From a virus (lineage: Duplodnaviria; Heunggongvirae; Uroviricota; Caudoviricetes), in the IMG/VR virus record IMGVR_UViG_2778261456_000009, positions 1 to 39,770 of that record: a stretch of DNA of 39,770 bases; one strand, given 5' to 3'. Positions within the stretch are counted from its first letter, which is position 1; every line of letters starts with the position of its first letter. Of the stretch, positions 24,571-39,770 are shown piece by piece. Below the pieces are notes generated by a model. That model was not told where the DNA came from. It ran no database searches and saw only the letters and a list, made by a program, of their open reading frames with translations. Position numbers and translations under genes: made by a program.

Positions 24571-24726
24571 TTACTCCTCAGATTCGTAAGCTGTGAAGAC
24601 AGCGACCTCCGTCTGGCCGGTTCGGATTCGTACCTCGCAGAGGTCTTTCCTCGTTACCAGTGCCGTCACTATGACGGTTAAACAGATGACGATCAGGGCG
24701 ATTAACATCGCCTTTTGCTGCTTCAT
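24571..24726 (-). CDS. hok: Hok/Gef-family type I toxin
   Basis: 51 aa MKQQKAMLIALIVICLTVIVTALVTRKDLCEVRIRTGQTEVAVFTAYESEE, near-identical to recalled HokD/RelF and Gef; AAGGAG RBS. Confidence 0.85.
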   Translation of the reverse strand: MKQQKAMLIALIVICLTVIVTALVTRKDLCEVRIRTGQTEVAVFTAYESEE

Positions 24727-24783
24727 AGCCTGCTTCTCCTTGCCTTTCGGCGCGTAAGAGGCTAACCTACATGTGCAAGTCAT
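24571..24783 (-). CDS. mok: Mok-like in-frame leader ORF of hok
   Basis: In-frame 19-codon extension from ATG at 24783 (MTCTCRLASYAPKGKEKQA-), analogous to mokC/hokC in-frame arrangement. Confidence 0.4.
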   Translation of the reverse strand: MTCTCRLASYAPKGKEKQAMKQQKAMLIALIVICLTVIVTALVTRKDLCEVRIRTGQTEVAVFTAYESEE

Positions 24784-24972
24784 AGATATGGCCTCAGATT
24801 AATGTTAAGCGTCTTGCCGGACGCGTAATGTTAACTGGGGCTTTTCTCTATCTGCCTTTTGGTGTTCATGCCTGAGACAGATAGCCTCAAGCACCCGCAG
24901 CAATTCTACTTAACTCTCGCTTTACCGCAAACCGTTTTTACCCGATATGGGAATTCCCATATCGTAATGAAT

Positions 24973-32477: not shown

Positions 32478-32872
32478 AGGAATACCTTATTACTGGTTGT
32501 GTGAGAACTCCAGTATACCACCGAGCCTGAAGTGGTAAAAAGACAGGCGCACAACACGAAGGCGCATTTCCGGTATTCATAAAGAGTCGGTCTTGTCTGT
32601 TAAATTTAAATGGTGGGAGTGCGCCTCCGGTTGTAAATAACGACATTGCTATGTGTAGTCTTTGGCGGCATCAGTTCTACTCCGTGGCTGCCCTGCCGCC
32701 CCTTTTTAAAGTGAATTTTGTGATTCGGTGAATGCGGCTAAGCGCACGCGGCACAGTTAAAAGCATCAGTGTTATGGGTGGATTATCCGGCGTTAATTGT
32801 TAACTGGTTAACGTCACCTGGAGGCACCAGGCACCGCATCGACAAAATTCATTTGTAAAAATGGAGATAATT

Positions 32873-37230: not shown

Positions 37231-37425
37231 ATGAGATATGACGATGTTAAACCATGTCCGTTTTGTGGTTGTCCATCAGTAACGGTGAAAGCCATTTCAG
37301 GATATTACCGCGCGAAGTGTAACGGATGCGAATCCCGAACCGGCTATGGTGGAAGTGAAAAAGAAGCACTCGAACGATGGAATAAACGAACCACTGGAAA
37401 TAATAATGGAGGTGTTCATGTATAA
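37231..37425 (+). CDS. ralR: RalR (Lar), restriction alleviation protein
   Basis: 64 aa MRYDDVKPCPFCGCPSVTVKAISGYYRAKCNGCESRTGYGGSEKEALERWNKRTTGNNNGGVHV matching recalled RalR. Confidence 0.9.
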   Translation: MRYDDVKPCPFCGCPSVTVKAISGYYRAKCNGCESRTGYGGSEKEALERWNKRTTGNNNGGVHV

Positions 37426-37606
37426 AATTACCGCCACTATTGAAAAAGAAGGTGGCACTCCTACTAACTGGATAAGATATTCAAAATCTAAATTAACGAA
37501 ATCAGAATGCGAAAAAATGCTCTCAGGGAAAAAAGAAGCAGGCGTTTCCAGAGAGCAGAAAGTAAAACTGATAAATTTTAATTGCGAGAAACTTCTGTCC
37601 TCGTGA
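37418..37606 (+). CDS. ydaC: YdaC-like protein
   Basis: 62 aa MYKITATIEKEGGTPTNW...; overlaps ralR stop by 8 nt; gene order as recalled for Rac. Confidence 0.7.
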   Translation: MYKITATIEKEGGTPTNWIRYSKSKLTKSECEKMLSGKKEAGVSREQKVKLINFNCEKLLSS

Positions 37607-37706: not shown

Positions 37707-37994
37707 ATGGCAATGAATCTTGTGACACTCAAAACGTGGGGGAAACTCAGATATCCGGATAACCCACCATCAATATCAACGCTGAGACGATGGGCAAGGA
37801 ATGGAAACATTTATCCTGCACCTGAACTACACGGGAGGAGTTACAGGGTGGTTCCGGAAGCTTTCTATATCAACCCAAATAAGGTTGATACCGATATAAC
37901 ACACCATCAACCTAATGGGCGACAAGGGAGAGACGGTCCGTTACTGGAGAAGTTAAAACATGCAGCGGAAAAAATACGATCCCAATTTGCCTAA
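37707..37994 (+). CDS. xis: Excisionase (Xis-like)
   Basis: N-terminus (TLKTWGKLRYPDNPPSISTLRRWARNGNIYPAPELHGRSYRVV) parallels lambda Xis; AAGAGG RBS; 3' end overlaps int start as in lambda. Confidence 0.6.
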   Translation: MAMNLVTLKTWGKLRYPDNPPSISTLRRWARNGNIYPAPELHGRSYRVVPEAFYINPNKVDTDITHHQPNGRQGRDGPLLEKLKHAAEKIRSQFA

Positions 37995-39036
37995 AAACTT
38001 AACATATCGAAGGAGGGACAAAGCATATTACTGGCGCAACCCTCTGACGAAAGAAGAATTTACACTAGGTAAAATTTCAAGAAGAGATGCAGTAGCGCAG
38101 GCAATTGAAGCAAATCATTATATATACAAAAACTACTCTCCTGCTGCCTTAATTGAAAAACTTAAAGGGTTCGACTCATTTACTATGGCAGACTGGATTG
38201 AACGTTACAAAACGATTCTTATAAGGAGAAAAGTGTCCAGAAATACTTATAAAATTCGGGTAAATCAACTGGAGACAATAAAAGAAAAATTAGGAGGGAT
38301 TTTACTGACAGAAATAACCACTCGCCATATTGCCGAGTTTCTTGATTTGTGGATTGAAGGAGGGAAAAACACGATGGCAGGATCAATGCGTTCTGTGTTA
38401 TCTGATATGTTCCGCGAGGCCATTGTTGAAGGACGTATATCTCAAAATCCAGTAACGCCAACAAGAGCACCGAAAATAGTAGTTACAAGAGAACGGCTGA
38501 AACTAAAGACATACAACTGCATCAGGGAGGCAGCAGATCAACTTCCGGCATGGTTCCCATTAGCTATGGATTTAGCCCTTGTAACAGGACAACGTCGCGA
38601 AGACATAACGAATATGCGGTTCAGTGATATTTATGATGACCGTCTCCACATCAGGCAAATTAAGACAGGAATGATGATTGCTATCCCTCTGTCACTCAGC
38701 CTTCCTGTCGCTGGTCTACGGCTTGGTACAGTAGTTGAACGATGCCGCCTGGTAAGCCGGGGAGATTATCTAATCAGTGCCGGGATTAGAAAAAACAGCC
38801 CTGACGGCAGCATTCACCCGGATGGCCTGACAAAAAAATTTGTCGCAGCCAGAAAATTAACAGGTATCCAGTTCAGTGAAAACCCACCAACTTTTCACGA
38901 GATCAGAAGTCTGGCTGGACGATTGTACAAAGAAACATGTGGAGAAGAATTTGCCCAGCGCCTACTTGGTCACACATCGGAGAAGACAACAAAAATGTAT
39001 CTTGATGAGCGAGAAAAAACGTACTTACTGCTCTGA
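37960..39036 (+). CDS. int: Tyrosine integrase, lambda Int family
   Basis: 358 aa; alignable by eye to lambda Int (PPNL, FGLG, catalytic region with [11 protein letters not shown] and [13 protein letters not shown]). Confidence 0.9.
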
Positions 39037-39113
39037 TTTTAACGTAAATGGATTGTTAAATGTATATTGGTTGTGATATAACCAAAAAAGACCGGAATAC
39101 AGAAATTCGAGTA

Positions 39114-39133
39114 AATTTCGGGGAATTTCGGGG
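39114..39133. repeat. Perfect tandem 10-bp repeat AATTTCGGGG x2 in int-proximal att arm
   Basis: Read directly, about 80 bp downstream of int stop. Confidence 0.5.
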
Positions 39134-39174
39134 AGACGCTTGCAACTAATTGATTTTAAATACAATTAAAAAGA

Positions 39175-39201
39175 GACCGAATACGATTCCTGTATTCGGT
39201 C
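39175..39201. repeat. Hairpin GACCGAATAC-GATTCCT-GTATTCGGTC, with a direct copy of the arm at 39090-39100
   Basis: 10-bp perfect stem; AAAAAGACCGGAATAC at 39085-39100 repeats the left arm context. Confidence 0.4.
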
Positions 39202-39360
39202 CAGGGAAATGGCTCTTGGGAGAGAGCCGTGCGCTAAAAGTTGGCATTAATGCAGGCTTAGTTGCCTTGCCTTTTAAGAATAGATGACGACGCCAGGTTT
39301 TCCAGTTTGCGTGCAAAATGGTCAATAAAAAGCGTGGTGGTCATCAGCTGAAATGTTAAA

Positions 39361-39399
39361 AACCGCCCGTTCTGGTGAAAGAACTGAGGCGGTTTTTTT
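39361..39399. terminator. Bidirectional intrinsic terminator between prophage end and host gene
   Basis: AACCGCC...GGCGGTT stem with inner GTTCT/AGAAC pairing, then TTTTTTT on plus strand; on minus strand it follows the host gene stop (39429). Confidence 0.6.
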
Positions 39400-39428
39400 A
39401 TTGGAAATCAAAAGGCTATTTTAGGTAA

Positions 39429-39770
39429 TTAACAGAGTTTTTCAGCTCGTTCTATAAACGGTGCCAGACTCATTTTTTCGCCGGGATTGTTAGGATCATC
39501 AATCTGAATCACCGAAATGGGTTGGGCTTTAGTCTTCCCACTGGCAACTTCCTTTTGTGCGATATCGTTTAAAGGATACTGCACGAGGGTACTTGGGTTA
39601 ATGACATACAAAGCATTACCCGGTCTGCAAGTCAGCATCACCTCTTCGCGATTAAACGCCCATTTGTCTTTACCCACTTCAAAACGACTGACGGTAATCA
39701 CCTGCGGTGCAGCCAGCGCCGCTGCAGAACTGGTGAGTAACAGAAACGTCAGAATACTTTTTTTCATCAT
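39429..39770 (-). CDS. Small exported protein (host-like, signal peptide)
   Basis: 113 aa, cleavable signal peptide [20 protein letters not shown]; ATG at window edge; tentatively resembles enterobacterial YebY-type protein (from memory, unconfirmed). Confidence 0.65.

Follow-up and report, generated by a model that had tools for sequence, protein, structure and literature searches.

A probable int-proximal attR of a Rac-like lambdoid prophage in the terminator of the small RNA gene sdsR

The DNA that follows the integrase gene at the right end of the 39,770-nucleotide viral sequence analysed here (the window) is very likely attR, the int-proximal junction of a lambdoid prophage lying in the Rho-independent terminator of the small RNA gene sdsR, between pphA and yebY. 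The int reading frame ends at 39036, the attR junction is at 39167, and from there host homology runs rightwards in all 5426 complete E. coli genomes, which bears out an initial reading of the letters alone (the sequence-only reading) in which this was an int-proximal attachment region. The same int adjoins yebY in 228 of the 5426 genomes (~4%), and an uninterrupted pphA-sdsR-yebY attB is found in 5191. The features discussed below are collected in Table 1.

Table 1. Phage and host features at the int-proximal end of the window (positions are those of the window).
Feature	Position	Strand	Sequence or support
Excisionase gene (xis), overlapping the start of int	37707-37994	plus	Pfam PF07825 Exc, E = 6.8e-14
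Lambda-family tyrosine integrase gene (int), 358 aa	37960-39036	plus	PF00589 (61.7 bits), PF22022, PF09003
Promoter-like block directed towards RyeA (hypothetical)	39053-39082	plus	TTGTTA-18 nt-TATAAC, TG upstream of the -10
Second copy of the left core arm, with A-run	39085-39100	plus	AAAAAGACCGGAATAC; in every relative as GACCG(G)AATAC
Three putative arm-type Int sites	39103-39133	plus	AAATTCGAGT 39103-39112 (degenerate), AATTTCGGGG 39114-39123, AATTTCGGGG 39124-39133
IHF consensus site, analogue of lambda H'	39143-39155	minus	AATCAATTAGTTG, consensus WATCAANNNNTTR
Segment homologous to SraC/RyeA, antisense to SdsR	39164-39308	plus	Rfam RF00101, 178.1 bits, full-length model match
att identity block common to attP and attB	39167-39198		32 bp, TAAAAAGAGACCGAATACGATTCCTGTATTCG
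Host sRNA gene sdsR/ryeB	39168-39267	minus	Rfam RF00111, 116.4 bits against a gathering score of 38, model positions 1-100 of 100
Inverted 10-bp arms with 7-bp spacer (putative core-type sites)	39175-39201		Left arm C 39175-39184, phage; right arm B' 39192-39201, host
Strand-exchange interval	39183-39193		7-nt loop GATTCCT (39185-39191) and two bases on each side; natural markers
Host bidirectional intrinsic terminator	39358-39397	RyeA on plus, yebY on minus	Arms AAAAACCGCC 39358-39367 and GGCGGTTTTT 39388-39397
Host gene yebY	39429-39770	minus	Pfam DUF2511, E = 4.8e-45; annotated yebY in all matching genomes

The junction and strand exchange

Attachment sites from other genomes place the boundary. 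The empty site attB reads TAAAAAGAGACCGAACAC-gattcct-GTATTCGGTC, in strain C600 within the context ...ACAGA/attB/CAGGG, and attP reads TAAAAAAAGACCGAATAC-gattcct-GTTTTCGTCA, within the context ...ACAAT/TAAAAAAAGACCGAATAC-gattcct-GTTTTCG/TCAACAAAC. The latter was obtained from two independent sources, the phage record PP818812.1 (Int 98% identical) and the junction between tandem prophages in strain 12089, in both of which attP homology stops at 39198. All six attL sequences examined, each beside pphA in a different strain, join the host left arm GACCGAACAC through gattcct to the phage right arm GTTTTCGTCA; the attR of the window, of strain R1 and of strain 12089 joins the phage left arm GACCGAATAC through gattcct to the host right arm GTATTCGGTC. 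In this comparison of attB, attP, six attL and three attR, attL and attR are reciprocal hybrids of attP and attB. The attL sequences are those of related lysogens, the other end of this prophage lying outside the window. The sequence-only reading had held that the core junction could not be fixed without that other end, but attB, attP and attL of other genomes were sufficient to fix it. Everything to the right of 39198 is host DNA, namely the rest of sdsR and ryeA, the terminator of RyeA and yebY, and yebY itself.

A location of the other prophage end within the window was considered and rejected: the core occurs once, a second copy being absent from the window even when three mismatches are allowed, and the window begins inside tail genes.

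Two natural markers delimit the crossover. At 39182, attP and attR share T, and attB (4/4 sampled) and attL (6/6) have C; at 39194, A is common to attB and attR, and T to attP and attL. Since the two markers segregate reciprocally, strand exchange is confined to the interval between them, 39183-39193. The four empty sites and six attL also rule out that the C at 39182 is a peculiarity of K-12, and the common one-mismatch variant of attB falls outside the core. There are exceptions, in that the attR of locus L068 has the phage allele T at the equivalent of 39194, an indel-rich assembly (L012) has C at the equivalent of 39182, and the window itself has a host-like G at 39173, where both attP sequences have A. 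The identity of the parts, the junction and the crossover interval are thus read directly from the compared sites; the exact cleavage positions are predicted. By analogy with lambda, the 10-bp arms of the terminator would serve as inverted core-type Int sites, in the layout of a lambda-type core, and the loop GATTCCT would be the overlap region within which strands are exchanged.

The phage genes next to this junction do not belong to the Rac integration system. Intact phage genes in the window end with xis and int; strain R1, in its near-identical region, has the former annotated as 'excisionase'. Int has a tyrosine-recombinase catalytic domain, a central domain and a lambda-type arm-DNA-binding domain, the last at the N-terminus (PF09003, Arm-DNA-bind_1, 28.1 bits with a cut-off of 22). 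It shares 41% identity with HK022 Int and 39% with HK97 Int, and BLASTP found no similarity to IntR of K-12 Rac (E = 1.4). K-12 Rac has the order kilR-ydaE-racC-recE-recT-ralR-rcbA-xisR-intR beside ttcA. Starting at recT and running over ralR/ralA and rcbA to ~37696, the window matches it with ~97% identity; beyond this sharp mosaic boundary the two are unrelated, with xis and int showing no relation to xisR and intR. A swapped xis-int-att cassette is therefore joined to the Rac-like early region, and it is because of this swap that the chromosomal site differs from ttcA. The sequence-only reading had noted that the gene on the right flank is not ttcA and had supposed that a Rac-type early module sits here at a different site; both points hold, the flank being yebY and the integration site sdsR. 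The IntR-at-ttcA module of K-12 Rac was accordingly rejected as a classification, on the Int comparison and the yebY/sdsR flank. The prophage boundary itself is fixed to the base, and a 'Rac-like' prophage away from ttcA is explained. Three further small RNAs are called at gathering level by Rfam in the window: the RalA antitoxin sRNA (37424-37602, minus strand, 222 bits), sok (24721-24896, minus strand, 114 bits, beside a hok-type gene) and DicF (32650-32701, plus strand, 61 bits).

Some related prophages deserve mention in their own right. Strain 12089 (L003, NZ_CP159875.1 3405000-3454900) carries two tandem prophages at sdsR with the same frameshifted int in both, and the attP-like junction between them lies at L003 6520-6982. 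PP818812.1 is deposited as 'Actinobacillus phage vB_Apl-pPE4', although it combines E. coli Rac-like kil, recE, recT, dicA, ydaT and hok with an sdsR-type attP, and its host label looks doubtful. The attL flanks of strains 95JB1 and Z1323CEC0010 (L009 and L010) hold effector-type cargo, with nleG7, a peptidase M85 fragment and IS1203; prophages with such cargo beside attL occur in some pathogenic strains.

The hairpin and the host small RNA locus

The hairpin that contains the core, formed by GACCGAATAC (39175-39184) and GTATTCGGTC (39192-39201) around a 7-nt loop, is one of two perfect 10-bp hairpins in the window, and Markov-shuffled sequences contain 0.38 on average. It had been singled out in the sequence-only reading, and its presence is indeed beyond chance. 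As minus-strand RNA it has a folding energy of -15.8 kcal/mol (z = -3.9). Rfam identifies what it is: the SdsR_RyeB covariance model matches above its gathering score with the terminal Rho-independent terminator included, and that terminator is the hairpin at 39175-39201 followed by a U-run, the sole terminator reported here by a consensus scan. The energy of the SdsR terminator is the same in the window and in K-12, a stem pair that is G-U in K-12 being A-U in the lysogen with equal stability. The hairpin is a chimera, with its left arm from the phage and its right arm from the host, and the last ~16 nt of sdsR (39168-39183) are the phage copy of the core. In attP, which does not contain the hairpin, the corresponding RNA folds with -4.2 kcal/mol only (z = +0.57), and a terminator scan of the attP region of PP818812.1 found no intrinsic terminator.

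These results bear on the suggestion, also made from the letters alone, that the hairpin is an RNase III retroregulation element. It would then be a phage counterpart of lambda sib, an intramolecular RNase III site in the 3' untranslated region of int that destabilises int mRNA. Lambda carries sib near att, linked to int in the unintegrated state. In favour of such a role are the strength of the hairpin, which follows int by ~140 bp in the same DNA, and the comparable position of the lambda element. Against it, the hairpin is the terminator of a host small RNA; every one of the 5426 complete E. coli genomes contains its right arm, which is host DNA; a stem of 10-11 bp is short for RNase III; and linkage to int exists here in the integrated state, the opposite of the situation in lambda. 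Moreover, attP is the phage configuration and does not fold, which rules out a phage-encoded sib-like element. The hairpin exists only in the host-joined attR and half of it is host DNA, so that membership of the sib type was rejected and a retroregulatory role of this kind is extremely unlikely.

The hairpin is instead the terminator of SdsR. The phage brings a duplicate of the final ~18-32 bp of sdsR, and because it supplies this terminal copy, SdsR keeps a full terminator after integration, made of the phage left arm and the host right arm. The antisense partner fares differently. The -10 element of K-12 ryeA, TGTTATGGT, and the start site ~42-45 nt left of the core lie beside pphA at attL; in the window, the K-12 promoter and the first ~42 nt of RyeA, to the left of the core, are replaced by phage DNA. 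As the -10 element and start site stay with pphA, RyeA in lysogens would lack its native promoter and 5' end, these having moved, together with pphA, to the far end of the prophage.

RyeA has been described as a 272-nt RNA whose 3' end results from Rho-independent termination (PMC6610125). That end is made by the terminator at 39358-39397, which on the minus strand also ends yebY. It has energies of -20.6 kcal/mol on the plus and -19.8 kcal/mol on the minus strand (z = -4.1 and -6.4) and T-runs on both strands. Its sequence is identical in K-12 and is present in all 5426 complete E. coli genomes. The bidirectional terminator of the sequence-only reading is therefore real, but it is conserved host DNA and no part of a single phage device. 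That reading had also allowed for the core mapping elsewhere and the repeats belonging to conserved host sequence. In the event the core lies inside the hairpin, and it is the right arm of the hairpin and all DNA rightwards that is conserved host sequence. One further host position differs: 39272, which adjoins the 5' end and promoter of SdsR, is T in the window and C in K-12 and strain R1, probably a neutral host polymorphism.

The predicted effects on expression extend to pphA, a gene whose transcripts come mainly from the sdsR promoter, by read-through of the leaky sdsR terminator (PMC6610125). The prophage would separate pphA from that promoter. Lysogens would thus have SdsR intact, the RyeA promoter lost and pphA uncoupled, and stress and porin regulation that depends on SdsR could change.

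The phage arm between int and the core

To the left of 39167 lies the phage arm, which would be the equivalent of lambda P', with an IHF bend ~39 bp and arm sites ~60, 70 and 80 bp from the overlap centre. It includes the perfect tandem repeat AATTTCGGGG at 39114-39123 and 39124-39133, the only perfect 10-mer tandem in the 39.8-kb window (mean of 0.13 in Markov-shuffled sequences), so that this structure, also picked out initially, likewise exceeds chance. The motif WTTCGRG occurs three times in this 130-bp arm against 0.53 per kb over the whole window. The IHF consensus WATCAANNNNTTR has two matches only in the whole window.

We compared the arm with those of relatives of Int, comprising 80 IMG/VR loci (70-100% identical), Salmonella phage ZC-S1_prp (74%) and a siphovirus from bat faeces (50%); a scan of genome contigs with Int found two close relatives only, both indel-rich assemblies. 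All relatives of Int keep the core and have, to its left, a GACCG(G)AATA copy of the core arm and then three A(A)TTTCG repeats spaced by 10-11 bp, with a spacer between repeats and core that diverges among them. The TTCG cores of the three repeats are invariant across 13 diverged relatives, and the IHF consensus is found at equal offset and orientation in 37 of 45 distinct spacers of relatives, its four N positions varying freely. Seven attP-type sequences show the far arm of attP as well, with an IHF-like site and, oriented like those near int, two or three more TTCG repeats at 108-147 bp from the centre. The spacing on the near arm is that of lambda. Measured on the real lambda sequence, with the sites int-proximal in both, the IHF site is 39 bp from the overlap centre (38 bp for H'), the arm site nearest the core 59.5 bp (58 bp for P'1), the middle site 69.5 bp (67.5 bp for P'2) and the site nearest int 80 bp (78.5 bp for P'3). 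The repeats behave like arm-type sites in that they are conserved, recur on the other arm and are spaced as in lambda, and they are very probably arm-type Int sites, to which the N-terminal arm-binding domain of Int presumably binds to form an intasome. While conservation and geometry of the sites are observed, protein binding is predicted from them. The sequence-only reading had likened the layout of the tandem repeats and the hairpin to integrase arm-type sites; for the repeats this stands, and for the hairpin, which is the SdsR terminator with the core inside it, it does not.

Further support comes from the bases that follow TTCG. Two or three of these differ between phages and are equal in all three repeats of one phage, and the resulting repeat tails (GGG/AGT, AGG, GAC, GAA) track the variable residues 17-24 of Int in a comparison of loci L015-L094, L014 and the window, with L091 as an exception. 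This covariation is suggestive of co-evolution of the repeats with the arm-binding domain, although shared ancestry confounds it and L091 departs from it. The diverged attP arms are in any case a natural dataset on site recognition by the arm-binding domain of the lambda family.

Beyond the third repeat, the arm holds the additional copy of the left core arm listed in Table 1. The sequence-only reading had described a direct copy of the hairpin arm, and such a copy of GACCGGAATAC is present at 39090-39100; it is not exact in the window, where it has one extra G, but is exact in several relatives, and in the phage whose Int is 50% identical it reads GACCGAATAT. By folding, the copy has no significant RNA structure on either strand, and plus-strand RNA structure over the repeats is not significant either (z = -0.9). 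A back-up terminator on the minus strand, formed by the GACCGGAATAC copy and the first repeat and shielding int from SdsR read-through, was tried as a candidate and rejected, with z of +0.1 to -1.3 in the window and two relatives.

Could the short repeats be a chance likeness, or functionless relics of past insertions? The GACCGGAATAC copy, inexact in the window, lacking significant RNA structure and having no counterpart in lambda, would fit such a view. The tandem is, however, the only perfect one of its length in the window, and the elements hold their positions even in a phage with 50% Int identity, with the bases of the spacer diverging, which makes this explanation very unlikely. In one relative, L020 (IMGVR_UViG_2728369554_000022), a deletion ~70 nt past the int stop fuses the arm copy AAAAAAGACCG... 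directly with the core copy, so that the IHF site and all three repeats are lost; this could be a locked-in prophage or an assembly artefact.

Closer to int, two further blocks, ATGTTAAA and TGTGRTATAA, are conserved in relatives whose Int is 70-100% identical, with neighbouring bases varying. They suggest the promoter-like arrangement of Table 1, which might replace the ryeA promoter. A promoter scan did not call this block at 39053-39082, because the last base of its -10 hexamer is C. The block also invites a reading of the repeats themselves, together with the conserved blocks, as operators or promoter elements, for instance Xis or Fis sites or a phage promoter in place of that of ryeA. The position of the block just upstream would agree with this, as would the reported finding (PMC7380047) that lysogeny by a Salmonella relative alters the 5' portion and the expression of ryeA, with RyeA still made. 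Yet the arm-binding domain of Int needs arm sites, the far arm of attP has the motif again, in a place where a role as ryeA promoter would be senseless, the spacing fits lambda P'1-P'3 within 1-2 bp, and the repeats vary together and track the Int N-terminus. We therefore regard operators or promoter elements as an unlikely identity for the repeats, and prefer arm-type Int sites.

The placement of int immediately upstream of the antisense strand of sdsR also allows a regulatory scheme, which we consider improbable: Int might be controlled by the host sRNA in the integrated state only, in place of the intramolecular sib of lambda, coupling excision to growth phase. In the lysogen, any transcript that continues past int would acquire a 3' tail with full complementarity to the RpoS-dependent SdsR, read-through of the sdsR terminator would run antisense into int, and the promoter-like block and extra core-arm copy would be part of the rewiring. 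A simple scan found no plus-strand terminator between int and the RyeA terminator. In stationary-phase E. coli, RyeA-SdsR duplexes are the most abundant double-stranded RNA cut by RNase III (PMC7373196).

A perfect 14-bp hairpin was also noted outside the window, in PP818812.1 (L004 ~45967-46010, region of CAGCUGCGGCACGU...ACGUGCCGCAGCUU), ~290 nt beyond the core. It adjoins the stop codon of a tail-fibre-assembly or pinE gene, and strain 12089 and the Salmonella phage have similar sequence.

Comparison with lambda and other integration systems

At the level of sequence, the region has the parts of a lambda-type attachment site: an Int with catalytic and arm-binding domains, Xis, a 32-bp identity segment, two inverted core sites round a 7-bp spacer, and repeats and IHF sites on both arms. 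As in lambda attP, the int-proximal arm holds an IHF site and three tandem sites, ordered alike with respect to int, and the far arm has two or three further sites along with an IHF-like one. The differences are as follows. The site sequences are unrelated, A(A)TTTCGRR here and C/AAGTCACTAT in lambda, and Int is ~39-41% identical to its HK97 and HK022 counterparts in the lambda group. The distance between int stop and overlap centre is 152 bp instead of 80 bp, the order of the far-arm sites differs, and the target is the terminator of an sRNA where lambda uses an intergenic site between gal and bio. The conserved core-arm copy beyond the third repeat is additional to, and unexplained by, the lambda model.

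The closest precedent is the Salmonella phage PhiW104, which attaches at the terminal 23 bp of ryeB; this bidirectional small-RNA locus has been described as a hot spot for insertion (Balbontin et al. 2008, J Bacteriol 190:4075, as cited in PMC7380047, PMC3333887 and PMC3603311). PhiW104 lysogeny is reported to lower ryeA expression and raise that of ryeB (PMC7380047), and a prophage catalogue lists "RyeB" by name among integration targets (PMC10111431). The window shares this target, the 3'-terminal terminator segment of ryeB, internal to ryeA, and in both cases phage DNA replaces the 5' part of ryeA. Salmonella phage ZC-S1_prp, with its 74% identical Int, has the same core and arm layout. 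The window differs from PhiW104 in its host, E. coli, and in an Int that is ~70-75% identical to the Salmonella-type relatives found; its identity block is 32 bp with three polymorphic positions, as compared with the reported 23 bp. We found no dissection of the arms of this Int in the searchable literature.

Integration into the 3' ends of tRNA and tmRNA genes offers a broader parallel. There, as here, the hairpin-forming 3' end of a conserved RNA gene is the target and the phage brings a replacement copy that leaves the gene intact. The target in the window is an Hfq-dependent sRNA with an antisense partner, and RyeA loses its native 5' end and promoter. The attachment site is one already known, and the window is an E. 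coli case of it with a lambda-like attP architecture, in which only the extra core-arm copy departs from the lambda paradigm.
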